Source of the DNA: Gammaproteobacteria bacterium
Lineage (GTDB): Bacteria > Pseudomonadota > Gammaproteobacteria > Eutrophobiales > Eutrophobiaceae
Direction: 5' to 3'
Assembly: GCA_965116585.1 (NCBI GenBank)
Contig: OZ220714.1
Coordinates: 2,396,115 to 2,460,114, forward strand
Length of the DNA stretch: 64,000 bases
Of this stretch, positions 1,044-64,000 are shown in pieces. A program made the position numbers and the translations under genes. Position 1 is the first letter of the stretch. The number at the start of each line of letters is the position of its first letter. Under the pieces are notes generated by a model, which had not been told where the DNA came from, did no database searches, and worked only from the letters and a program-made list of their open reading frames with translations.

Positions 1044-1257
1044 CGAACAAACCCTCGGAACCTCACAAGATAAAAACGCCAAGTATATCAGGTCAATCAT
1101 GAATTGGGAATTGCGCAGGCCCCTCCGCTCGTCATAGTGGACAGGGATTGCCCACTATCCAGTGACAGGGAGGCTAATCCCCCACCTGCAGATCCTGATT
1201 GTCTTACTACCGGTATTTATGCGATTATGAACGCACGAGGCGATTTGAACCGGAACA

Positions 1258-4618: not shown

Positions 4619-4770
4619 GCATTCCTCATCATGTGATACGCCCTCACTTGTCTTTGTCCCGCCGGCGGGCACGTGCTCCCTCAACCGTAGCTACGGCTAT
4701 GCTTTCGGTCGCAGGCACCCGCCGGCGGGACAAATCCTGCGCGATCATCGTATCACATGATGAGGAATGC
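4619..4770. repeat. nested-palindrome repeat element, copy 1: outer 22-bp perfect inverted repeat + inner 17-bp stem + conserved core GTGCTCCCTCAACC...GCAGGCACCC
   Basis: Outer IR GCATTCCTCATCATGTGATACG at 4619-4640 and its reverse complement at 4749-4770. Inner stem at 4656-4672 and 4715-4731. Core is shared with the copy at 28252-28359. Confidence 0.8.
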
Positions 4771-5927
4771 GGTCTGACCGCAACAACCTTGTCCGCGGCA
4801 TCACTCAGGCCATCCGCCGAAATAATCTTCAGGCCGCTTTCGTTGAGCAACGCCTTGCCTTCCTCAACCCGCGTGCCTTCCAGTCGCACCACTACCGGAA
4901 GCGTCAGGCCGGTTTCCCGCACCGCGTTGATAATCCCCTCGGCGATCAGGTCGCAGCGCACGATGCCGCCGAAAATATTGACCAGGATCGCTCTTACCCG
5001 GGTGTCGGACATAATCAGTTTGAAGGCTTCCGCCACGCGTTCCGTGGTGGCGCCGCCTCCCACGTCAAGAAAATTCGCCGGTTCGCCGCCGTGCAGCTTG
5101 ATGATGTCCATGGTCGCCATGGCCAGGCCGGCGCCGTTGACCATGCAGGCGATGTCACCGTCCAGTGCAACGTAATTCAGGTCGAACACCTTGGCCTTGT
5201 TTTCCTTCTCATCTTCCTGGCTGGGATCGCGCCAGCTTTCCAGTTCCGCCTGGCGGTACAGGGCATTGTCGTCAACGGCCACCTTGGCGTCCAGGGCCTC
5301 CAGGTCGCCGTCTGCGGTAATGACCAGGGGGTTGATCTCAACCAGGCTGAGGTCCTTGTCCACAAACAAGCGGTACAATCCTGACAGGATTTCAGCCAGT
5401 TGCTTGCCCTGGGCGCCGCTCAGCCCCAGGGCAACGCCCAGCGCCCGGCATTGATATTGCTGCAAGCCCATCACCGGGTCGATGGCAAACGTGAAGATCT
5501 TTTCCGGCTCGGTAGCCGCCACCTCTTCGATGTCCACCCCGCCGGCGGCAGAGGCCATCACCGCAACCCGGCGCTTGCCTCTGTCCACCAGCATGCCCAG
5601 GTAAAGTTCAGAGGCGATATCCGACAAGGAGGACACCAGCACGCAATTCACCGGTTTGCCGTCGGCGCCGGACTGTTTGGTAACCAGGACGCTTCCCAAC
5701 AGGTTGCTCACGTAATCTTCCAGTTCATCCTTGCCGTTGACCAGTCGCACGCCTCCGGCCTTGCCGCGCCCGCCGGCATGGACCTGGGCTTTTACCACCC
5801 AGCTTTTGCCACCCAGTTGCGCCGCGGCAGCCAGCGCGTCCTTGACGGAATGGGCGGGTTGCCCATCCGGCACGGGAATGCCATATTCCGAAAAAAGAAT
5901 TTTTGCCTGGTATTCATGCAGGTTCAT
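4644..5927 (-). CDS. sucC: succinyl-CoA synthetase beta subunit, with a repeat-encoded C-terminal extension
   Basis: [20 protein letters not shown]... ATP-grasp SucC. The canonical C-terminus ...AADKVVAV is followed by about 42 aa ([43 protein letters not shown]) encoded inside the palindromic repeat 4619-4770. Confidence 0.9.
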
Positions 5928-6274: not shown

Positions 6275-6301
6275 GCCCATTCCTGCGCAAGCAGGAATCT
6301 C
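6275..6301. repeat. REP-like hairpin CCCATTCCTGCGCAAGCAGGAATCTC
   Basis: Stem TTCCTGC/GCAGGAA with loop GCAA. Near-identical copies at 33451-33473 (reverse complement), 55231-55250 (reverse complement), 55683-55708 and 55720-55746. Confidence 0.7.
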
Positions 6302-7163: not shown

Positions 7164-7317
7164 AATTAAGAATTAGGAATTAAGAATTAAGAATGGGAGT
7201 GTTGTATCACTATGTACCTTGTTCCTGCTTACTTAAAGCCTGCGACTCATAGTAAACTGTCGCCAAAAGCGGCACATTCATTCCTAATTCCTGATTTCTA
7301 ATTCGTAATTCTTAATT
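7164..7317. mobile_element. MITE-like element A with heptamer-array TIRs (AATTARG)n
   Basis: Left end aattaag aattagg aattaag aattaag aatggg. Right end cattcattcctaattcctgatttctaattcgtaattcttaatt is the reverse-complement heptamer array. The central ~80 bp is homologous to the centre of element C. Fills the suhB/trmJ divergent intergenic region. Confidence 0.7.
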
Positions 7318-9791: not shown

Positions 9792-10054
9792 TGAAGACGG
9801 CCGCCATCCTTGTGCTCCTGTGCGCGGTGCTGGTGACCGCCGTGGCCGTGGTGGGTACACAACACGCGGCGCGCAACGTCTTCATGGAGATAGAGCAGTT
9901 GAAAAAAGAGCGTGACCTGTTGAATGAAGAATGGAGCAGGCTCCAGATCGAGCAGAGCACCTGGACGCTGGAAGAACACATCGAGCGTATTGTCAGGGAG
10001 GACCTGGATATGCGCGCGCCGGATAACGGTTCCAGGGTATTTTTAGTACCATGA
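9788..10054 (+). CDS. ftsL: cell division protein FtsL
   Basis: 88 aa, single TM plus coiled coil, in the canonical position between rsmH and ftsI. Confidence 0.8.
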   Translation: MMKTAAILVLLCAVLVTAVAVVGTQHAARNVFMEIEQLKKERDLLNEEWSRLQIEQSTWTLEEHIERIVREDLDMRAPDNGSRVFLVP

Positions 10055-11781
10055 GCAGCGGCCTGCTCAAAGTCGTATACAAAGACCGCAGACGGTTGGT
10101 GCTGGCATTGTTTGTCGGCGCTACGCTCGCGGTGGCGGGCCGGGCTTTTTACCTGCAGATTCTGAACAAGGATTTTCTCATCAACGAAGGGAATGCCAGA
10201 GCGGTGCGCAGTGTTACCATCCCCGCCTACCGGGGCATGATCACCGATCGGAACGGCGAACCCATGGGGGTCAGCACGCCGGTGGATTCTGTCTGGGTCG
10301 TGCCCGGAAAAGTACTGGCTTCCGGCGCCGACCTGAAGGAACTGGCCAACCTGCTGGATACGACGGATGCGGTGCTGCGGCAGTCACTCTCAGAGCGGCA
10401 GGACCGGGACTTCTTTTATCTCAAGCGGCATGTGATGCCTGCTACCGCACGCCAGGTACGCGACCTGAAAATACCGGGCATCAACATCGTCAAGGAGTAC
10501 AAGCGCTATTATCCGTTCGGTGAGGTGGCTTCCCACCTGGTCGGATTTACCAATATTGACGACAACGGGCAGGAAGGCATCGAACTGGCTTTTGACGACT
10601 GGTTACGGGGCACGCCGGGGAAGAAAAGGGTATTGAAGGACTTGTACGGTTCGGTCGTCAAGGATATTGAAAACATCAAACAGTCGGTACCCGGTGAAGC
10701 ATTGGTCCTGGCCCTGGACCAGCGCTTGCAGTACCTGGGCTACCGGGAGCTGAGGGCCGCAACGCTCAAGCACAATGCCAAGGGCGGTATGCTGCTGTTG
10801 CTGGACGTCACCACCGGCGAGATCCTGGCGCTGGCGGTACAACCCTCTTTCAATCCCAACAACCGTATCGGTATCAGTGGCACGCACTACCGTAACCGTG
10901 TGGTGACGGACGTGTTCGAACCCGGTTCCACCATCAAACCGTTCACTATCGCGGCGGCGCTGATGTCCGGCCAATACCGCCCCGAGACCATGATCGACAC
11001 GGCGCCGGGACGCCTTTCCATCGGCCGCTACTCGATCAGTGACATCAATAATTACGGCCTGCTGAGCGTGAGCGACGTCATCCGCAAGTCGAGCAACATC
11101 GGCAGCACCAAGGTCGCGCTGTCGTTGGGCGCGGAACCGCTGTGGAAGTTGCACAACGCCGTCGGCTTCGGCAGCCCGACCATGAGCGGCTACCCCGGAG
11201 AGGCGGTGGGCACGCTGGCCGAACCCGGTGACTGGTCCCAGGTCGACCTGGCCGCAGCCTCTTACGGCTACGGCATTTCGGTGACTGCCATGCAGTTGGC
11301 CCAGGCTTATGCGGTGATTGCGTCGGGCGGCCTGTTATACCCGATCAGCTTCCAGAAAGTCAGCGCGCCGCCTGCGGCCCAACGCGTATTGCCGGAAGCC
11401 ATCGCGTTTGAAGTAAATACAATGATGCGTACGGTAGTTGGGGAAGGCGGTAGCGGCAAGCGCGCCGCGGTGGAAGGTTACCACGTTGCCGGCAAGACCG
11501 GCACCGTGCACAAGGCCTCGGCCTCCGGTTACGACGAGGACCGTTACCTGTCGTTGTTTGCCGGCTTTGCTCCGGCCACGGAACCGCGCCTGGTCATGGT
11601 TGTGTTGATCGATGACCCCAGGGCCGGCGATTATTACGGCGGTAAGGTGGCCGCGCCGGTATTCGCCAGTGTCATGCACGGCGCGTTGCGGATATTGAAC
11701 ATCCCGCCCGATAACCTGATCGGGTTAAAACAACGGGCGCTGCTCGCCAACAACAGCGCCCAACTGAGAAATCCGGGCTAG
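10051..11781 (+). CDS. ftsI: peptidoglycan D,D-transpeptidase FtsI (PBP3)
   Basis: 576 aa with STIK, SSN and KTG motifs. Confidence 0.9.
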   Translation: MSSGLLKVVYKDRRRLVLALFVGATLAVAGRAFYLQILNKDFLINEGNARAVRSVTIPAYRGMITDRNGEPMGVSTPVDSVWVVPGKVLASGADLKELANLLDTTDAVLRQSLSERQDRDFFYLKRHVMPATARQVRDLKIPGINIVKEYKRYYPFGEVASHLVGFTNIDDNGQEGIELAFDDWLRGTPGKKRVLKDLYGSVVKDIENIKQSVPGEALVLALDQRLQYLGYRELRAATLKHNAKGGMLLLLDVTTGEILALAVQPSFNPNNRIGISGTHYRNRVVTDVFEPGSTIKPFTIAAALMSGQYRPETMIDTAPGRLSIGRYSISDINNYGLLSVSDVIRKSSNIGSTKVALSLGAEPLWKLHNAVGFGSPTMSGYPGEAVGTLAEPGDWSQVDLAAASYGYGISVTAMQLAQAYAVIASGGLLYPISFQKVSAPPAAQRVLPEAIAFEVNTMMRTVVGEGGSGKRAAVEGYHVAGKTGTVHKASASGYDEDRYLSLFAGFAPATEPRLVMVVLIDDPRAGDYYGGKVAAPVFASVMHGALRILNIPPDNLIGLKQRALLANNSAQLRNPG

Positions 11782-26733: not shown

Positions 26734-26861
26734 GGGAATTAGGAATTACGAATTAGCTGAGACCTGTGTGGGAATCTGTAAGGGTTTCAGTTTTGGCAGA
26801 ATTGACAATATGGCAACCAGGCTTTCAACCTGCACCCATTCCTAATTCGCAATTCCTAATT
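26734..26861. mobile_element. MITE-like element B, heptamer-array TIRs
   Basis: gggaattaggaattacgaattag ... cccattcctaattcgcaattcctaatt. The right TIR contains the stop codon of the DUF721 gene (cta at 26841-26843). Confidence 0.65.
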
Positions 26862-27294
26862 GATCCGTCAATCGCAGCAGAACGGCGCGCAACGGAGGAT
26901 GTGTGATTGCAGTAGCCATCTGGCGTATGGCGTTTGCGGTTTCGGGAGAAACCCTGGTCGGCTCACGCACGGTGTGGTTGGATGGCGCCGGCGGGCGGTT
27001 CTTGATGTGGATTGTGCGTAGCTCGGGGAGTGTGGTTTTGAATGCTGTGAGAAGTTCGCGTGTACGGTAACGCAACCGGGTTGTCCAGGCCGCGCTATCG
27101 GCATGAAGAACCAGTGTCTGCTGCTGGTAATCGGCGACAACTACATGCTCTTTTAGAGGAAAATCAAGGTATTCAGATAATTTTGCTTGTAATCCGTTTA
27201 ATTTTTCTATATGGTCATAAATCCGTGATAATTCGTCTGACCTGGTTACGATGTCTGAAATCGAATTAATTGGAGGCTGAGTATGGATATTCAT
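26842..27294 (-). CDS. DUF721 (DciA-like) family protein
   Basis: 150 aa. Conserved position between lpxC and secA as in pseudomonads. Confidence 0.6.
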   Translation of the reverse strand: MNIHTQPPINSISDIVTRSDELSRIYDHIEKLNGLQAKLSEYLDFPLKEHVVVADYQQQTLVLHADSAAWTTRLRYRTRELLTAFKTTLPELRTIHIKNRPPAPSNHTVREPTRVSPETANAIRQMATAITHPPLRAVLLRLTDQLGIAN

Positions 27295-32273: not shown

Positions 32274-32434
32274 CTTAATTAAGAATTAAGAATTAAGAAT
32301 TAGGAATTAGGAATTAGGAATTAGGAATGGGGGTATTGCGCAGCGTGGCCAGGACTTTATTTCCGGAAGGCTGCCTTGGTTACAAAACTGCCGACGCAGT
32401 CGGTACATCCATTCTTAATTCCTAATTCCTAATT
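32274..32434. mobile_element. MITE-like element C, heptamer-array TIRs (longest left array: 3x AATTAAG + 4x AATTAGG)
   Basis: Left array then aatggg. Right end ccattcttaattcctaattcctaatt. The centre resembles element A (aaactgccgacgcagtcggtacatccattc vs aaactgtcgccaaaagcggcacattcattcc). Ends 10 bp before the mutT ATG. Confidence 0.7.
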
Positions 32435-33450: not shown

Positions 33451-33473
33451 CTTCCTGCTTGCGCAGGAATGGG
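33451..33473. repeat. REP-like hairpin (reverse complement of CCCATTCCTGCGCAAGCAGGAA), between convergent genes
   Basis: cttcctgcttgcgcaggaatggg. Likely a bidirectional terminator or REP. Confidence 0.6.
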
Positions 33474-38372: not shown

Positions 38373-38618
38373 GGGTTAAATCCGGGATGTTAATCAGTGA
38401 GGGTGTTTAGATATGGGCATTCTGCGCTGATTCAAGTTGCTCTTTCACTCGATCCAGATCAAGCTGGCCGTGCGTCCGGTCACGCCGTCCCGGCGGTAGG
38501 AGTAAAATAACTCTCTGTCGCCATAGGTGCAGAGTTTACTGTCATAGATTTCTACCACCCCCAGTTGCCGTAACTCCGCCTGCACCAGCCGTTCCAGGCT
38601 CAGATACCAGTGGTTGTG

Positions 38619-40014
38619 AGTTATTGTCAAATCTGGTGTATGGCATCATAGTCAGGCGGCCCGTTTGTGTTGCTCAAGGGTCTCTTCTCTCACGCCGTCA
38701 ATAAACGTCACATTCTCAATCACATCGGCCAGGTGCTTAAACCCCCGCATCCGGCGCCAATTCTTCTCCGCACATAACCCCAGCTTGTAGACCATGGTTA
38801 GCAGGCTGGTGCGGCTGACGCAGCCCCGCGTCCTGGCAGTGCGTAACCGTACCGTCGCAAACGTCGACTCAATCGGATTGGTCGTCCGGATCGACTGCCA
38901 GTGTGCCGCCGGGAAGTCATAGAAGGCCAATAATGAATCCCGATCTGCGTCCAAGCAGGCGGCGGCCTTGGGATACTTGTCTTCGTAGGTGCGGAGAAAC
39001 CGGTCCAACGCCCGGCTCGCCGCGGCCCGGCTCTCGGCCATCCAGATAGCCTGTAACCCCTGCTTGGCTTTGGCCTGGACCCCCTTGGGCAATTTGTTCA
39101 AGACATTGGCCATCTTGTGCACCCAGCAGCGCTGTGTGCGGGTCGTGGGATACACCTCCGCCAACGCCGCCCAGAACCCCAACGCCCCATCGCCAATGGC
39201 CAGCGACGGCGGCGCGAAACCCCGAGACTGCAAATTCACCAGCAACTCGCACCAGCTCTGTTTGGACTCCCGGTAGCCGTCCTCCACCGCCAATAACGCC
39301 TTCCTGCCCCACTCATCCACCCCGACCATCACCAGCAAACACTGCCGGGCCTCATCACCCCGCACGGTGAAGTAAATCCCGTCCACCCACACGTACACGT
39401 AACGCTGTCTATGAAAATCCCGACTGCACCAGGTTCGGTACTCCTCCTCCCACACCCGCTTCAACCGACTCACCGTCGCCGCCGAGAGACCTCGCGCCTG
39501 CGCCCCCAACAACGCCGCCAGCGCAGCCTGCATGTCCCCCGTCGAGACGCCCTTCAAATACAACCACGGCAGCACACTCTCGACACTCGCCGTGCGCTTG
39601 ATATACGGCGGCAGCAAGGCAGAACTAAAATGCCGGCCCCGGCCACCCCGGTCCCGCGTCTTCGGCACCCGTATCGGTACCTCCCCCAACCCGGTCGTCA
39701 CCGTGCGCGCCGGTAAATACCCGTTCCGGACAATGGACCGGCGACCCGCTGCATCGCACTCGCCCGCATGCTCAGACAAATACGTCGCCAACTCCGCCTC
39801 CACGGCACTGTGCAACAGCGCCCGGGCACCGTCGCGTAATAAACTCTCCAACGGTGTCCATGCCTCGACTCGCTTTTCCAGGGAAATTACCGTATCGTTC
39901 TTCATGGTGGTGTACTCCTCTCATGTTGTTGGTTGTCTTCGAAAAAACACCATTTTACAACATCGGGTGCACCACCTCACTACGCAGCCCATACACCAGA
40001 AATGAGCATAACTC
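38619..40014 (-). mobile_element. IS256-family insertion sequence (1396 bp) with imperfect terminal IRs and 9-bp target-site duplication AGTGGTTGT
   Basis: Left end gagttattgtcaaatctggtgtatgg. Right end ccatacaccagaaatgagcataactc (reverse complement matches). TSD at 38610-38618 and 40015-40023. Confidence 0.85.
38652..39905 (-). CDS. IS256-family (mutator-type) transposase
   Basis: 417 aa with DDE motif region, ...WVDGIYFTV...CWVHKMANVL... Confidence 0.9.
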   Translation of the reverse strand: MKNDTVISLEKRVEAWTPLESLLRDGARALLHSAVEAELATYLSEHAGECDAAGRRSIVRNGYLPARTVTTGLGEVPIRVPKTRDRGGRGRHFSSALLPPYIKRTASVESVLPWLYLKGVSTGDMQAALAALLGAQARGLSAATVSRLKRVWEEEYRTWCSRDFHRQRYVYVWVDGIYFTVRGDEARQCLLVMVGVDEWGRKALLAVEDGYRESKQSWCELLVNLQSRGFAPPSLAIGDGALGFWAALAEVYPTTRTQRCWVHKMANVLNKLPKGVQAKAKQGLQAIWMAESRAAASRALDRFLRTYEDKYPKAAACLDADRDSLLAFYDFPAAHWQSIRTTNPIESTFATVRLRTARTRGCVSRTSLLTMVYKLGLCAEKNWRRMRGFKHLADVIENVTFIDGVREETLEQHKRAA

Positions 40015-40574
40015 AGTGGTTGTTGCGGGATGGGACAATTGCTGCCGCGGTGTCTGCCCAGATCGATGAGCAGGCGGAGACGACCTCGAGGCCGACCTCG
40101 TAGTGTTCCTGCCTGATATGGGGACCGACCCAGGCCAGCAGTTCCCGGGGTGGGGAGCTGAACAGGGACAGGCCATGTTTTATCACGCGCTTGCACAGGC
40201 CGCGCCAGCCCACGTGCAAGGCCGCGATTTCGGCGCCGGCGCGGTCGCACAGCAGTAACGGCACGCAGTCGGCAGTCAGAATGGTGCAGACGGTTCCTGC
40301 GCTGTCCGTGTGGGAACCGTCTGCGGGTACGAGCGCATCGCGGCCTGGCCTGAGAATCCGGTTACCATGCTGTTGCTCCAGCCAGGCCGGTTCCGATGGC
40401 AGGTTCAGCCGTTCATACAGTCGCCGCCGGTTTTCTGTCACGGCGTGCGGCTCATCGCCCACATGTCCGGCAAGGTTGCAACTGTCAAAAGGCGCGCGGC
40501 TGACCCCGTTCAACCGGGTAGTCGTTCCTGCCCGGATATGCGCCGGCGCCGGCCAGTGCGCGGGTAGCCAGTTG

Positions 40575-41552: not shown

Positions 41553-41627
41553 TTTTAACCCGCATATCTCACCAAGTCGCTTGTTGCAATCTGAAACTTC
41601 GCACCACTTGGTGAGATATGCGGGTTA
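41553..41627. repeat. 23-bp perfect inverted repeat (TTAACCCGCATATCTCACCAAGT) with 29-nt loop, in the rluD/degS divergent region
   Basis: Arms at 41553-41575 and 41605-41627. Followed by about five ATCTGT-like direct repeats with roughly 10-bp period, up to the degS ATG. Confidence 0.6.
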
Positions 41628-41719
41628 AGGGAACTCTGCATCCGCTGTGGCAAAAAAAATTCTGTGTTAATCTGTATCATCTGTGGATATCATTTATCCG
41701 TGTTATCTGTAGCTGTATT

Positions 41720-44313: not shown

Positions 44314-44960
44314 TCCCGTATGGCCGCGGCCAGGCGGTTTATGAACGGTTTGATTTGCTCCCGTTTCATCTTCATGGAGGCTTTGTTCACGATGAGGCGG
44401 GAACTGATATACGCGATGTTTTCGAGTGGCGCCAGGCCGTTTTCTTTCAGGGTGTTGCCGGTATCGACCAGATCGACTATCAGGTCCGACAGGCCCAGTA
44501 CGGGAGCCAGTTCCATGGAGCCGTATAACTTGATAATTTCCACCTGTTGCCCTTTTTCGGCAAAATAGTTGCGTGTTGTCGTGACGTACTTGGTGGCGAT
44601 GCGTAAGCGGCCCGATTGCGCCGGCGCGTTGTTGGGTCCGGCCAGCATCAGGCGGCAACGGCCTATTTTCAAATCCAGCGGTTCGTACAGGTTATCGCTC
44701 ACGCATTCCATCAGCACGTCCTTCCCGGCAATGCCGAGATCAGCGCCGCCGTTGAGCACGTATGTCGGCACATCGGTTGCCCGGATCACGATCAGCCGCA
44801 GCCCGGGCCGGTTGGTCTCAAACACGAGCTTGCGGGTGGCGCCGGGGTCATCCAGAGGTTGCACCCCGGCGCGCGCGAGCAGAGGCAGCGCCTCCTCCAG
44901 GATGCGCCCCTTGGAAACGGCAATGGTTATTCTGTCTTTGTCAGTCTGTTCCAATTCCAA
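44310..44960 (-). CDS. hisG: ATP phosphoribosyltransferase, short form
   Basis: 216 aa; TTG start at 44960. Confidence 0.85.
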
Positions 44961-44963
44961 ACA

Positions 44964-44990
44964 CCCAATTCCTAATTCTTAATTCGTAAT
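44964..44990. repeat. solo heptamer-array TIR (cccaattcctaattcttaattcgtaat), MITE-family fragment F
   Basis: Only one arm present. Lies in the 35-bp gap between the murA stop and the hisG start. Confidence 0.5.
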
Positions 44991-44995
44991 ACCCC

Positions 44996-47253: not shown

Positions 47254-47331
47254 TCATAGCTGCGTAAATCTGCGTTATCTGCGGACAAATACCGAATCTT
47301 TCATCTGCGTAAATCTGCGTTATCTGCGGAC
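47254..47331. repeat. 47-bp-period tandem duplication (2 copies) with a perfect 27-bp core CTGCGTAAATCTGCGTTATCTGCGGAC
   Basis: Copy 2 (47305-47331) encodes the MMPL C-terminus ...SADNADLRR-stop. Copy 1 (47260-47286) is intergenic, upstream of mlaC. Confidence 0.8.
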
Positions 47332-49811: not shown

Positions 49812-49898
49812 CAATTACGAATTAGGAATTAAGAATTGGGAATGAACACACCTCGTGATGATATTTCAACCCCGGTTAATTCGTAATTCCTAATTCTC
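49812..49898. mobile_element. MITE-like element D (short, 87 bp), heptamer-array TIRs
   Basis: caattacgaattaggaattaagaattgggaatg ... aattcgtaattcctaattctc. Lies between the divergent MMPL and DUF4399 starts. Confidence 0.65.
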
Positions 49899-49948: not shown

Positions 49949-50377
49949 ATGCATAAACTGATCTTCTTCATACTGGCTGCTTGCGCGTTGTCCGTTTCCG
50001 CCCAGCAGCGGACCCCGGCGCCTGAGAATGCCGAACTGTATTTTATCTCACTCGCTGACGGCGCGAGCGTGTCCAATCCGGTCAATGTCCGCTTCGGTCT
50101 CAGAAACATGGGAGTCGCTCCCGCCGGTATCAAGTACGACAACAGCGGCCACCATCACCTGCTGGTAAACACGGAATTGCCCTCCCTTGACTTTCCCATC
50201 ATTAACGATGAAAACCACCTGCACTTCGGTGGCGGTCAAACGGAAGTTAGCCTGGAACTTCCCCCGGGAGAGCACACCTTGCAACTCCTGCTGGGCGATT
50301 TTGCCCACATCCCCCACGCACCGGCCGTGATGTCGGAGCGTATTACGATAACGGTCAAGGGCGCCTCTAAAAATTAG
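49949..50377 (+). CDS. secreted DUF4399-family protein
   Basis: Signal peptide; HHHLL...HLHFGGGQTE motif region. The last 6 codons (KGASKN) lie inside the family-(iv) palindrome. Confidence 0.7.
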   Translation: MHKLIFFILAACALSVSAQQRTPAPENAELYFISLADGASVSNPVNVRFGLRNMGVAPAGIKYDNSGHHHLLVNTELPSLDFPIINDENHLHFGGGQTEVSLELPPGEHTLQLLLGDFAHIPHAPAVMSERITITVKGASKN

Positions 50378-50459
50378 AGGTTGTTTTAAAGGAACCTCTA
50401 ATAATGCCAGCATATCCCTATGCTGCACGGGCGCCTCTAATTTTTAGAGGCGCCCTTAA
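50353..50459. repeat. 107-bp element bounded by 24-bp inverted copies of AAGGGCGCCTCTAAAAATTAGAGG
   Basis: Left arm 50353-50376. Right arm 50436-50459 is a perfect reverse complement and itself a 12-bp-stem hairpin. Lies between convergent DUF4399 and purN. Confidence 0.75.
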
Positions 50460-55110: not shown

Positions 55111-55147
55111 AATCAAGAATTAAGAATTGGGAATCAGGAATTGGTAG
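55111..55147. repeat. solo heptamer array (aatcaag aattaag aattggg aatcagg aattgg), MITE-family fragment E, 2 bp upstream of the secD start
   Basis: No matching right arm found. Confidence 0.5.
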
Positions 55148-55230
55148 TGGTGCAGCCCCCCGGTCCATTCCCATGAAAACGGGGACCCGGTAGCCAACCA
55201 AACTCCTTATAAAGAATGTTTTCTCACTGG

Positions 55231-55250
55231 ATTCCTGCTTGTGCAGGAAT
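55231..55250. repeat. REP-like hairpin attcctgcttgtgcaggaat, between yajC and secD
   Basis: Family CCCATTCCTGCGCAAGCAGGAATCTC. Confidence 0.6.
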
Positions 55251-55301
55251 GACGAACCATGATGCAGCATTATTTATCTCGTTGCGTATAACAAGGCTTC
55301 A

Positions 55302-55682: not shown

Positions 55683-55746
55683 CCATTCCCGCACAAGCAG
55701 GAATCTCCGTGATACCGGATCCATTGCTGCGGAAGCAGGAATCTCC
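55683..55746. repeat. two tandem REP-like hairpins (gccattcccgcacaagcaggaatctcc and tccattgctgcggaagcaggaatctcc) downstream of msrB
   Basis: Same family as 6275, 33451 and 55231. Confidence 0.6.
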
Positions 55747-60684: not shown

Positions 60685-63600
60685 ATGCCTTACAAAGTCG
60701 AAACTATGTTGATGGGAGGGGATGCGCCTAATGACACCTCGACAGAACTTTGCTTCAATCCGCCCAATGGGCCGTTCGAGGGCAACGAGGTAACGGGCAC
60801 CATCACCACAAGGGGCGATGAAGACTGGATTGCCATAGAACTCAGTGAGGGCAAGGAATACACCATTACCGTGGCTACCAGGCATACCATGGATGCTGAC
60901 GATACAGTCGATTCTGATGAGGATGGTACGGATGATAACGATCGGGACGCTGGCGGCCTCAACGACTCCGTCCTGAAGTTGCTGGATGGCAAGGGTGGCG
61001 TGATCGACATGAACGACGATATCGACGCGGCAAAGGGCATGCTGAATTCGGAGTTGAAGTTTACGCCTGAGGCAGGCAGCGGTACGCAGAAGTATTACAT
61101 CAGCGTCAGTGGCTACACGGGCAACCCGGGCGCCAATAATACCGGTGGTTACACAGTCTCAGTGTCAGAGAAGGCTGTGTTGGCGGTTGGTTCGGGTGTG
61201 GGCATACCGGGCACCGACAATGCTGACAAGCTTTTCGGTACTGACCTGTCAGAATCCATTACAGGTATGGGCGGCGATGACACCATAGACGGCATGGGCG
61301 GCGATGACACCATAGACGGCGGTGACGGCAACGACCTGCTTATCGGCGGCAAGGGCGCTGACAAGCTGACGGGTGGTGATGGGGACATGGACACCATAAG
61401 CTACCGTGGTTCCGTAGCAGGCGTGACCATCAACTTGTCTGACGGCACGGCCAGGGGTGGCGATGCTGAGGGCGATACGATTAGCGATGATATTGAGAAC
61501 GTCATAGGTTCCGAACATGACGACATGCTGACCGGCAACAGGGCAGTCAACAGTCTCTGGGGCCTGGGCGGCAATGATGAACTCGACGGTGGTCGCAGAA
61601 ATGACAAGCTGTACGGCGGCGCTGGCGATGACATGCTGGACGGCGGCGCCGGCAATGATACGCTGGAAGGCGGTTACGGCGCCGACATGCTGACCGGTGG
61701 CGAGGGCGATGATACTGCCTCCTACAGCATGTCCATGATGGGCGTCACGGTGCGCCTGCACAGTGGCCAGGCCATGGGCGGTGACGCCGAAGGCGACACC
61801 TGGAACCTGTCTGTTCCCCAAACGTATACCAACGGTGATGAAGAAGAGGTTGAAGTAAACCTTGCCGATATCATAAACCTGACCGGTTCGGCCAATGACG
61901 ACATCCTGGCGGGCGACATGAGGGACAACATCATCATGGGCGGCGCCGGCAACGACAGGATTTACGGTGGCCCGAACCCGGCTGATGCGGACACGGAGTC
62001 GGATGCAGGCCTTAGCAATGCCGACACCCTGCACGGTGACGGCGGCGACGACAGGATCTTCGGCGGCATCGGCGGCGATATCCTCAGGGGCGGCGCCGGG
62101 GATGACATGCTGCATGGCGGTCCGGGTAATGACACGTTCTGGGGTGGCCACGGTAGCGACATGATCTACGCCGATGCTATGGATACCCACATTTATGGCA
62201 ATCGCCCGGATAATACCGAGCCGGACGGTACCGTGATTGACCCTGCTACTGCTGACGTTGACGAAAGCATGGAAATGGAAGGCGATGTCGACACCGTTTC
62301 CTATGCGAGGCTGGAAGAGGGAATAACCAGGACACTTGGTAGTGATGGAACGGGCAGTGCAGATGCGACTGATGGTACTAATATTCTCATTATGGGAATT
62401 GAAAACATTATCGGCACCCAAGGTGATGACACTATTACCGGCGATACCGGTGCTAACGTTATCGAAGGTGGTGAAGGCGGTGATGACCTTGACGGCGGAG
62501 ATGGAATCGATACCCTTTCTTATGAAAGTTCCGACGACTGGGTCAGAGTAACACTGAATGGCGCTAGCGCGGCGACTACCTCCAGGGGGCATGCTTCAGG
62601 CGATGAGGCCGAGAATTTCGAAAACCTCACAGGGTCTGCTTATGATGACGACCTGACCGGTGATGATGTGGCGGCTGGGAATGTGATCAAGGGTCTGGCC
62701 GGCGATGATGATATCGAAGGCATGGGCGGCAACGACACAATAGAAGGTGGCGCCGGCGCCGATGAGTTGGACGGCGGTTACACTCCTGTTAATGCTGCGG
62801 GTACTGATGCGGGTACTAGTCCGGCTGATGATGGTAATAGGAATTTCGAAGCGAACACCTTGTCCTATGCAAATTCAGACGCGGGTGTCACGGTGAACCT
62901 GGCGACTGCCAGTGCTTCCGGCGGCCATGCTACGGGCGATACCATTGCGACTTACGAAGAGCTTTCTCCCACGACCGAGGATCCGGACAACGAGGTTGAC
63001 GTTGCTACGTTTGCGCACGTCGTCGGGTCCATGTACGGTGACCGGCTGACCGGTGACAAACAAGACAACCACCTGACCGGTGGCGGTGGTGATGACACCC
63101 TCAGGAGTGGAGCCGGCGCCGACCGCGTTATAGGCGGCCCCGGTGCGGACGTGCTCGACGGTGGCGAGGACATGGGTGAAAAGAACGATATGGTCCCGAA
63201 CCCTGCATTTGATGCCACACTGGATGAAAGTGATGCTAATCCCAGAATGGTCGCCGCTTCCGTGGACTGGGCAGTCTACAAGCACGCGGCGGCGGGCGTC
63301 ACGGTGGACCTGTCAACCGGCATGGGCACCGGCGGTGAGGCCATGGGCGATACTTTGATGAACATTGAGTTGATCTGGGGTTCCGAACATGCCGACACCT
63401 TCATAGCCAGTTCCGGAGCCGATACCATCGAAGGTGACGGCGGCAGCGATACCGTCTCCTACGAGGCCTCGTCAATGGGCGTCACGGTCAACCTGGGTGA
63501 AAGCACTCAGCACAGGATAGCGACAGCCACTGGCACAGGCACCGAGGCCGACCCGTTTGTATTCCCTGTAGACGATCCGGCTACGGTCGTTCGGCCTACG

Positions 63601-64000
63601 GCTGGTGTGCCCAGATTGGACGCAATGGGTAATCCATTCGTTGATGGTACTAACGTTGAGCATGAGGACGACAACCCGAATGCCAATGGCGCTGCGGGTG
63701 ACAGGCTGGGCAGTATCGAGAACCTGACCGGTTCCAACCAGAAGGACATGCTGACCGGCGATGCCAACCCCAACGTCCTCAAGGGCATGGGCGGCGATGA
63801 TACGCTGAGCGGTGGCACTGGTGGCGAAGATAAGCTCTATGGTGGAGACGGTGATGATATGCTGACCGGCTCTGGTAGCGATGGTGACATGCTGGATGGC
63901 GGAGCAGGCGATGATACGATCATCGGCAGCACTGGTGATGATACGATCACCGGCGGCGCCGGCGATGACGACCTGAGCGGCGGCACTGGCAATGATACAT
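60685..64000 (+). CDS. giant RTX (hemolysin-type calcium-binding GGxGxDxUx repeat) protein, N-terminal PPC-like domain; 3' end beyond window
   Basis: Hand translation from ATG 60685 is open for 1105 codons to the window end. N-terminus has G.I..RGDEDWIAIELSEGKEYTITV...DSVLKLLDGKG...YYISVSGY (pre-peptidase C-terminal-like), then dozens of GG[AD]G[ND]D nonapeptides. Not in the ORF track because no stop occurs in the window. Confidence 0.85.
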   Translation, partial: MPYKVETMLMGGDAPNDTSTELCFNPPNGPFEGNEVTGTITTRGDEDWIAIELSEGKEYTITVATRHTMDADDTVDSDEDGTDDNDRDAGGLNDSVLKLLDGKGGVIDMNDDIDAAKGMLNSELKFTPEAGSGTQKYYISVSGYTGNPGANNTGGYTVSVSEKAVLAVGSGVGIPGTDNADKLFGTDLSESITGMGGDDTIDGMGGDDTIDGGDGNDLLIGGKGADKLTGGDGDMDTISYRGSVAGVTINLSDGTARGGDAEGDTISDDIENVIGSEHDDMLTGNRAVNSLWGLGGNDELDGGRRNDKLYGGAGDDMLDGGAGNDTLEGGYGADMLTGGEGDDTASYSMSMMGVTVRLHSGQAMGGDAEGDTWNLSVPQTYTNGDEEEVEVNLADIINLTGSANDDILAGDMRDNIIMGGAGNDRIYGGPNPADADTESDAGLSNADTLHGDGGDDRIFGGIGGDILRGGAGDDMLHGGPGNDTFWGGHGSDMIYADAMDTHIYGNRPDNTEPDGTVIDPATADVDESMEMEGDVDTVSYARLEEGITRTLGSDGTGSADATDGTNILIMGIENIIGTQGDDTITGDTGANVIEGGEGGDDLDGGDGIDTLSYESSDDWVRVTLNGASAATTSRGHASGDEAENFENLTGSAYDDDLTGDDVAAGNVIKGLAGDDDIEGMGGNDTIEGGAGADELDGGYTPVNAAGTDAGTSPADDGNRNFEANTLSYANSDAGVTVNLATASASGGHATGDTIATYEELSPTTEDPDNEVDVATFAHVVGSMYGDRLTGDKQDNHLTGGGGDDTLRSGAGADRVIGGPGADVLDGGEDMGEKNDMVPNPAFDATLDESDANPRMVAASVDWAVYKHAAAGVTVDLSTGMGTGGEAMGDTLMNIELIWGSEHADTFIASSGADTIEGDGGSDTVSYEASSMGVTVNLGESTQHRIATATGTGTEADPFVFPVDDPATVVRPTAGVPRLDAMGNPFVDGTNVEHEDDNPNANGAAGDRLGSIENLTGSNQKDMLTGDANPNVLKGMGGDDTLSGGTGGEDKLYGGDGDDMLTGSGSDGDMLDGGAGDDTIIGSTGDDTITGGAGDDDLSGGTGNDT

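Follow-up and report, generated by a model that had tools for sequence, protein, structure and literature searches.

Intergenic tandem repeats of seven-nucleotide units (the STRR, GGGAATC and TAACTGA repeats) have been on record in bacteria since 1990 without a mechanism or a function having been assigned to them. In Xanthomonas campestris and X. axonopodis, GGGAATC repeats of the form (GGGANTN)n make up 186 and 183 arrays per genome, with 70-75 convergent pairs of arrays on opposite strands in each; 83% of the sites are common between species, and no link to mobile DNA was seen (Rehm et al. 2015, PMC4692102). The same paper cites earlier work in which heptamers were found in excess among the simple repeats of bacteria, as well as Mrazek's idea that polymerase slippage lies behind this excess. 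TAACTGA repeats are known from Beggiatoaceae, cyanobacteria and Bacteroidetes, where 132 of 170 were sense-oriented and a single inverted case was recorded (MacGregor 2015, PMC4679880). Here we describe arrays of another heptamer, AATTARG, in a 64-kb stretch of a gammaproteobacterial genome (contig OZ220714.1 of assembly GCA_965116585.1). This stretch, the whole of the DNA that was analysed, is called the window; it represents ~1.7% of the source genome, and all within-genome counts cover the window alone. On balance, we read the inverted pairs of arrays found there as a mobile family, similar to MITEs (miniature inverted-repeat transposable elements), of small non-coding palindromes with heptamer-array arms, a non-conserved core and a conserved inner module.

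The arrays are strongly enriched in this DNA. The two-unit pattern AATTARGAATTARG, allowing at most two mismatches, has 33 matches in the window against 0.43 expected, a number reached by none of 100 dinucleotide shuffles, and the single heptamer AATTARG occurs 27 times against 7.2 expected. Tandem Repeats Finder returned period-7 arrays at every locus named in a first-pass annotation of this sequence, and no second heptamer family in the non-coding DNA of the window. The unit also stands apart in composition (29% G+C, against ~59% for the window). The consensus derived from 52 units is AATT(A/G)(A/G/C)G, in which the fourth position is T in 42 units and the fifth is A in 39; AATTGGG units are few, so most units lack the G-tracts required of a G-quadruplex. 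Ten arrays of at least three units are present in the 64 kb of the window, whereas none was found in ~130 kb of DNA from relatives. We considered an assembly artefact and rejected it, since element D (below) and the solo arrays turn up again in separate assemblies.

The arrays are organized as four modules (A, B, C and D), each consisting of an array, a centre and an inverted array, and three solo arrays (Table 1). Polarity is identical in all four modules: the arms converge, with AATTARG on the 5' side of either strand. The arms are 20-31 nt long and 84-95% complementary, as expected of the terminal inverted repeats of MITEs, and contain 3-7 units, or 8 with an inner degenerate unit included, in agreement with the three to eight counted initially. 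The modules are 83-158 bp long and their arrays place stop codons in all six frames, again in keeping with small, non-coding MITEs. Folding as a long hairpin gave z scores of -6.8 for A, -2.9 for B, -7.6 for C and -3.8 for D. The first-pass annotation had proposed a dispersed family with inverted heptamer-array arms, which stands, and had noted that full copies would form long imperfect hairpins as RNA. All six of its loci are real, and we add a solo array next to a Rieske protein gene. The AATGGG…CCCATT frame that it placed around the centres is only partly there: B is without the left part, the right part reads CATTCATT in A, and D has CCCCGGTT. The inner termini of the elements are GGAATGnnnGTG … CACnnnCATTCC.

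The window was compared with related genomes, in which the corresponding loci were reached via homologues of the TrmJ, SecA and MMPL proteins. The close relatives are two genomes from one sample (one represented by L120, L121, L124 and L128, the other by L123 and L127) with ~97.7% DNA identity to the window; L483 is an intermediate relative, and L122, L125/L129 and L126 are outgroups at ~85% identity. Element A is wholly missing in L120 and L121 and in outgroup L122, which have an unrelated 53-bp spacer there. Element C is wholly missing in the close relatives L123 and L124, where a 19-bp spacer (tttttaatcaaacagtccg) is found, and in outgroups L125 and L126; the insert in the window has TAATTAA at both ends. 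At the site of B, L123 and L124 have only a mini-palindrome, GGGAATTAGG-AATT-CCTAATTC (AATTAGG-AATT-CCTAATT). In the window, additional DNA (ACGAATTAGC…core…CCTAATTCGC) is placed within the central AATT, with the result that AATT stands on both sides; in the outgroups this site reads AATTACG AATCAGG (L125) or holds nothing. The presence/absence differences at orthologous intergenic sites that were anticipated initially are thus seen for A, for the inner part of B and for C, and filled and empty sites of this kind are typical of MITEs.

Element D is present in the relatives in another form. Its core, 36-40 nt between two AATT motifs, is reverse-complemented in L127 and L128, where 33 of 36 positions are identical in that orientation and direct alignment is poor; this is a difference between genomes and not one seen within a single population. 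At the same site L483 has a larger element with a 95-nt core, oriented as in the close relatives, and the orientation in the window is therefore the derived one. A segment that lies either way round between inverted repeats resembles an inverton, but no promoter-like site was found inside it. No site-specific invertase was present among 10 open reading frames (ORFs) scanned, although no search was aimed at invertases. The D site of outgroup L129 (~10010-10090) contains a different, GC-rich palindrome, AGGGAGCCCCTGAA … TTCAGGGGCTCCCT, and the palindromic elements lodged in the D spacer differ from one lineage to another.

The solo arrays are older than the modules. The array at hisG was found in all relatives, including the ~85%-identical outgroup L129; strains differ there by a 14-nt indel and by substituted units. 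The array at secD differs by a 7-nt indel from L127 and L128 and is present as a shorter, three-unit version in L483; L129 is without the yajC–secD spacer that holds it. Arm lengths had been singled out at the outset for comparison between strains, and at the solo arrays they change in steps of 7 and 14 nt between 98%-identical strains.

In addition to the arms, some of the elements have an inner module in common. Beside the right arm is a GC hairpin of 5-7 bp, followed by (G)CAC-A/C-YY-CATTC (CACATTCATTC) and then by the arm itself. This module of about 22 nt (the hairpin plus CACATTCATT) is common to A, to C and to the element at the D site of L483. The right inner end of the latter, CGCCTCAGGCGGCACATTCATTC, is similar to CGCCAAAAGCGGCACATTCATTCC of A (z = 8.0) and to the corresponding end of C (z = 5.8), and in neither comparison did any of 500 shuffles match the score. 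The stems differ by copy (GTCGC/GCGGC, CCGAC/GTCGG, GCCGCC/GGCGGC), and pairing in the hairpin reaches 87%, compared with 23-50% in slid controls. B has a weaker version, CAGG…CCTG and then CACCCATTCC. This conserved hairpin could be a recognition site. That one inner module is met at non-corresponding loci of different genomes speaks most strongly for copying and against an independent local origin, and copying is likewise favoured by the presence of only one heptamer family, at 29% G+C, in a genome of 59% G+C. We therefore observe, in one family, gain and loss of whole modules, length steps of 7 nt, inversion of a core, an inner module shared by different loci and a constant polarity of the arms.

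We suggest a mechanism in which the arms would grow and shrink by slipped-strand mispairing, and modules would enter and leave at the self-complementary AATT that opens every unit. Each event at AATT would restore a seamless array and could leave behind a mini-palindrome such as AATTAGG-AATT-CCTAATT. Insertion could be carried out by a putative transposase, or by repair of a break templated from another copy through homology of the arms. Long arms would be able to extrude as a hairpin or cruciform, and strand switching between them would flip the loop. We judge 36-40 bp, the length of the invertible segment of D, to be too little for recombinase synapsis and so for a recombinase switch, and no promoter-like site was found in the segment; its inversion is best explained by strand switching. 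We lean towards the view that the elements behave as selfish or near-neutral DNA with fast turnover at the DNA level. Effects on neighboring genes, such as AU-rich leaders, stops in six frames, a long RNA hairpin where transcription covers both arms, and a changed C-terminus of DciA, are probably by-products.

Several results weigh against a mobile family. No cognate transposase was found in the window, the sole insertion sequence there being of the IS256 family with unrelated ends, and no fixed target-site duplication was found at A, B or C. The AATT and TAATTAA motifs around B and C are not callable as target duplications, as they are part of the repeat unit, and at the site of A ~37 nt have been replaced, with no clean insertion and no duplication. 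The mini-palindrome of the relatives at B could be the product of a deletion and not an empty site, given that outgroup L125 already has AATTACG AATCAGG. Pairwise comparison of the cores of A, B, C and D found none clearly similar (z <= 2.6). The initial claim that the centres of A and C are homologous fails here, with a z of 0.1 (a score equal to the shuffle mean), and only the inner ends of the two are similar. No further copies of the four cores were met in ~1 Mb of fetched sequence, unlike the burst of a classical MITE. Finally, covariation in the inner module is limited to one compensatory pair among three sequences, which was matched in 153 of 500 shuffles and is not significant.

A plasmid BLAST search with A and C returned arm-like arrays only, in cyanobacterial and Providencia plasmids, with the cores unmatched. 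A metagenome scan with the left-end pattern of A and C returned 12 loci, mostly chance or coding matches. The exception is a perfect palindrome, ATACCCCCATTCCTAA|ATTAGGAATGGGGGTAT, in two unrelated metagenome contigs of ~48% G+C (L133 at ~800-840, and L135), which includes the exact inner left-end motif of element C, AATTAGGAATGGGGGTATTG.

The arrays themselves are widespread. One scan of species-representative genomes for three perfect AATTARG units returned at least 119 loci, and the matches listed include Bacteroidota, Cyanobacteria, Ignavibacteria, Verrucomicrobiota, Chloroflexota, Acidobacteriota, Clostridia, candidate phyla and others. Among the listed matches, 22 of 130 arrays have an inverted partner at most 300 nt downstream, often around a GC hairpin or a terminator-like stem. 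Between distant convergent arrays (L142 and L031), where an autonomous element was looked for, only ordinary small ORFs were found. Divergent polarity is limited, among the listed matches, to three elements at a single locus in a Chloroflexia metagenome-assembled genome (L050, 3038-5709). There, three consecutive spacers of a ribosomal-protein operon each have CTTAATT arrays, 16-19 nt, and AATTAAG arrays, the last of these just upstream of the next start codon. As a long shot, heptamer-armed palindromes might constitute a distinct, transposase-free class of mobile DNA across many phyla and phages, in which a module would break at the hairpin tip, be copied into other AATT-centred mini-palindromes by homology-templated repair, and be excised and flipped. 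If true, this would account for an excess of heptamer repeats in intergenic DNA that has long gone without explanation.

The wide distribution can also be read in favor of immobile simple-sequence repeats, whose arrays would expand in place by slippage beside existing intergenic hairpins and whose similarity between loci would be convergence. Arrays of period 7 dominate among the listed genome loci (268, against 23 of period 5, 36 of period 6, 7 of period 8 and 4 of period 9), and their other units are varied, TAACTGA among them. In viral contigs, AATTARG gave at least 120 matches, two composition-matched permuted controls 55 and 57, and the fully specified TAACTGA 107; AATTARG is thus favored, and not unique, across phyla. 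We had considered uniqueness of AATTARG across phyla and downgraded it, since in viral contigs the composition-matched controls are less common by a factor of only about two, or more. Growth in place is consistent with such common control heptamers, with the 7- and 14-nt indels between strains, with cores that are unrelated to one another, and with solo arrays that are old and syntenic. However, A and C bring 75-80 nt of core DNA that is missing in relatives and outgroups, which slippage cannot make; the hairpin and CACATTCATTC are common to different loci in different genomes; and the window, from a GC-rich genome, has a single heptamer family. We regard an origin in place as unlikely.

Another possibility is that the elements act in cis at the RNA level, either as leaders to which a protein of the S1, Csp or CsrA type would bind or as hairpins that stabilize or terminate mRNA, and are kept for what they do to the translation of a neighboring gene. 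Such a role has been proposed for TAACTGA repeats (PMC4679880; 10.1101/2022.06.06.494920). In the window, arms end 0-20 nt from six start codons, in genes with no clear Shine-Dalgarno (SD) sequence, and many of the arrays listed from other phyla end at most 15 nt from a start codon. The distances, which had been given correctly in the first-pass annotation, are 0-1 nt for secD, 7 for the MMPL gene, 9 for trmJ, 10 for the NUDIX gene and 20 for suhB, with the TTG start of hisG overlapped. This closeness follows from the very short ancestral intergenic regions (1, 19 and 53 bp in relatives). The intergenic location of the arrays is forced by the TAA or TAG that three or more units supply in all six reading frames. 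The further suggestion that the arrays form an SD-like platform fails, because in a convergent module the gene on either side necessarily faces the CYUAAUU strand: in seven of eight gene-proximal arms this sequence, and not AGGA, would be present in the mRNA, and only one of the eight is in sense orientation upstream of the start codon. Orientation relative to a nearby start codon was also unbiased in the 271 arrays listed from other genomes and viral contigs (26% against 23% for the genomes, 32% against 28% for the viral contigs); a random-position control for this analysis was uninformative, as most of its positions were inside genes. Promoter scans of the four modules found no promoter inside any of them, with a single promoter-like match outside A at 7346-7319, and terminator scans found one weak terminator-like hairpin, in C. 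Rfam gave no match in the whole window at gathering thresholds. Essential genes in 97.7%-identical strains manage without A and C. A primary role in RNA therefore appears quite improbable to us.

The inner module raises the question of REPIN- or PATE-like elements that a Y1/HUH transposase (RAYT or an IS200/IS605-type TnpA), reading the subterminal hairpin, would mobilize in single-stranded form, with the arrays being secondary. A small GC hairpin and a fixed motif do stand beside one arm in A, C and the L483 element at D, the hairpin module is on the same window strand in all four cases, and separate repetitive extragenic palindrome (REP)-like hairpins with a GGAAT core are present in the window. 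Against this, four concordant orientations are too few to count, long terminal inverted repeats are foreign to IS200/IS605 ends, elements A-D are without the conserved GTAG or CGTC tag, and no Y1 transposase gene was found among 10 selected window ORFs scanned. We find this explanation very doubtful. Least probable is that the arrays are binding sites of a single DNA-binding regulator and define its regulon: although the same motif is upstream of several genes, the sites are not kept between 97.7%-identical strains, unit number and sequence drift freely, one module is between convergent gene ends, and the flanking genes (trmJ, suhB, lpxC, dciA, argJ, NUDIX, MMPL, secD and hisG) are unrelated in function. 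The first-pass annotation had named a regulon as the better explanation should all copies prove syntenic and conserved, which they are not.

The mobile, MITE-like family thus remains our preferred reading, and the positions of its members are listed in Table 1. The surrounding gene order is gammaproteobacterial (suhB/trmJ, the mraZ–ftsZ–lpxC division cluster, secA and argJ). It had been noted initially that one copy contains the stop codon of the DUF721 gene (dciA), and this is indeed the case for the right arm of B.

Table 1. Positions in the window of the AATTARG modules and solo arrays, with their gene context
Feature	Position	Strand	Description
A left arm	7164..7198	+	AATTAAG AATTAGG AATTAAG AATTAAG AATGGGA; 20 nt from suhB start codon (suhB on -)
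A centre	7199..7275	+	Not significantly similar to other centres; conserved hairpin 7258-7274 in 3' part
A right arm	7276..7317	-	Six units read on -; preceded by CACATTCATTCC; ends 9 nt before trmJ ATG
B left arm	26737..26757	+	AATTAGG AATTACG AATTAGC; starts 9 nt past lpxC stop codon
B centre	26758..26833	+	Missing in relatives L123/L124
B right arm	26834..26861	-	Encodes final six codons and TAG stop of dciA (26842-27294, -)
C left arm	32277..32332	+	3x AATTAAG, 4x AATTAGG, AATGGGG; starts ~5 nt past argJ stop codon
C centre	32333..32406	+	Conserved hairpin 32389-32405, then TACATCCATTC
C right arm	32407..32434	-	Ends 10 nt before ATG of NUDIX/ThiE gene
D left arm	49813..49847	+	7 nt from ATG of MMPL gene (gene on -)
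D invertible segment	49838..49877	.	AATT on either side; orientation opposite in L127/L128
D right arm	49875..49895	-	
Solo array murA/hisG	44943..44991	-	hisG TTG start within last degenerate unit
Solo array secD	55111..55145	+	Abuts secD ATG (secD on -)
Solo array Rieske	1102..1115	+	Two units, AATTGGG AATTGCG; abuts start codon of Rieske protein gene (-); conserved in L120

The window and its relatives contain a number of other palindromes. A 154-nt palindromic insertion lies between sucC and sucD (4622-4775), its perfect arms of 27 nt (AGACCGCATTCCTCATCATGTGATACG) enclosing a nested palindrome that is GC-rich; in L120, which is without the insertion, the genes abut, and the outer 7 nt of the arms correspond to the native flank AGACCGC. 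A 74-nt palindrome at 41555-41628, which has perfect arms of 23 nt and is flanked by TTAA at either end, is missing in L123 and L124. Its right arm ends in GGTGAGATATGCGGGTTAA and so generates an SD-like sequence and an ATG in frame with a DegP-like gene, and 17 of 19 positions of the arm match at the start of a NUDIX gene in L125. At 50357-50457 there is an expanded palindromic repeat, AAGGGCGCCTCTAAAAATTAGAGG … CCTCTAATTTTTAGAGGCGCCCTT, that is also found in L127 and L128 at the site orthologous to ~42915; with a different locus in these relatives, it appears to be a separate dispersed family. In L123 (17390-17471), a strain-specific 82-nt palindromic insertion (arms TAGTACTCTTTCAAC) at pilD/clpB is missing in L124 and in the window. 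In this lineage, structural variation seems to consist mainly of small palindromic insertions.

The REP-like hairpins with a GGAAT core (GGATTCCTGCTTGTGCAGGAATG; GGATTCCTGC-TTGY-GCAGGAATG) occupy four or five sites, including 6277-6300, 33452-33471, 55229-55252 and 55683-55706, and are also present in relatives. Their stem amounts to one heptamer-like unit, CAGGAAT, and they end in GGAATGG, as does the inner unit of the arrays; this hairpin family may have something to do with how the arrays arose. The IS256-family insertion sequence (38614-40037) has a 417-aa Transposase_mut ORF on the minus strand, imperfect terminal inverted repeats of ~26 bp (GAGTTAT…TCTGGTGTATGG) and a 9-bp direct repeat, AGTGGTTGT, and is missing in the 97.7%-identical relatives.

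Two further tandem repeats, and one feature of a relative, should be mentioned. Repeats with a 27-nt period are found at 61250-64000, where the plus-strand frame 61600-61716 encodes RTX-type nonapeptides (GGAGNDTLEGGYGADMLTGGEGDDT); we assume that they are part of an unlisted plus-strand ORF, which may run past the end of the window. Three to four direct repeats are present in the mlaC–MMPL spacer (47260-47328), CTGCGTAAAT / CTGCGTTAT, that could be a protein-binding array. L120 and L121 (ENA ERZ25070917 ctg125726, 3337184-3357921 and 3662154-3682891, reversed) are the same 20-kb region present twice, inverted and with small differences, on one 3.7-Mb contig, which is either a large inverted duplication or a fold-back artefact of long-read assembly.

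What is new here is gain and loss at the level of strains, inversion of a loop, and a conserved subterminal hairpin. Near-identical genomes catch one family as absent, as a mini-palindrome, as a full module, with a resized arm and with a flipped core, and this makes the heptamer repeats a tractable comparative problem. The AATTARG family also shows that heptamer repeats as a class cannot be explained in general by the formation of quadruplexes. The elements also rewrite 5' leaders and gene ends, as at DciA and the hisG start, and will confuse gene callers and assemblers.

Minute hairpin-loop inversions between short inverted repeats are known from chloroplast non-coding DNA, and template-switch mutagenesis acts at quasi-palindromes; both have been described in organelle and model-plasmid sequences and are not known from heptamer-armed elements of bacteria. 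The 36-40 nt segment of D, present in both orientations in very close genomes, is similar to these. Bacterial MITEs such as Correia, ERIC and Nezha (PMC3184786) resemble the window elements in being 90-160 bp long, non-coding and intergenic, in having terminal inverted repeats and stable hairpins, in their filled and empty orthologous sites and in their fusion to the ends of ORFs. Copies of a classical MITE are alike over the entire internal sequence, have unique, non-tandem terminal inverted repeats that match an insertion sequence, and generate a defined target duplication; none of the three was found for the elements of the window.

The heptamer repeats are closer still. The TAACTGA repeats and the cyanobacterial STRR heptamers are, like the arrays described here, tandem and intergenic, often only a few nt before SD-less start codons; they too are patchy across phyla, are missing at the same sites in close relatives and vary by 7-nt indels. 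TAACTGA repeats are mostly direct and sense-oriented, whereas the window family consists mainly of inverted pairs in which orientation to genes is not conserved. The closest match is the GGGAATC family of Xanthomonas, which is also gammaproteobacterial and intergenic, with a heterogeneous 7-nt unit, a GGAAT core, convergent pairs, and length and sequence that vary between close relatives; the window itself holds GGGAATC and AATTGGG units. The two differ in that GGGAATC repeats are G-rich and have been studied as quadruplex formers, whereas most window units have one or two G and form no quadruplex, and in that the window has two of four modules as strain-specific insertions, one flipped module and a subterminal hairpin module. 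The first-pass annotation had not recognized this repeat from the described REP, ERIC, Correia and BIME classes. We met no mention of AATTAGG repeats in bacteria in the literature searched; intergenic heptamer repeats were nevertheless known, with convergent pairs in Xanthomonas (PMC4692102) and next to start codons in other groups (PMC4679880), and the window elements belong to this already described, still unexplained class of bacterial heptamer repeats.

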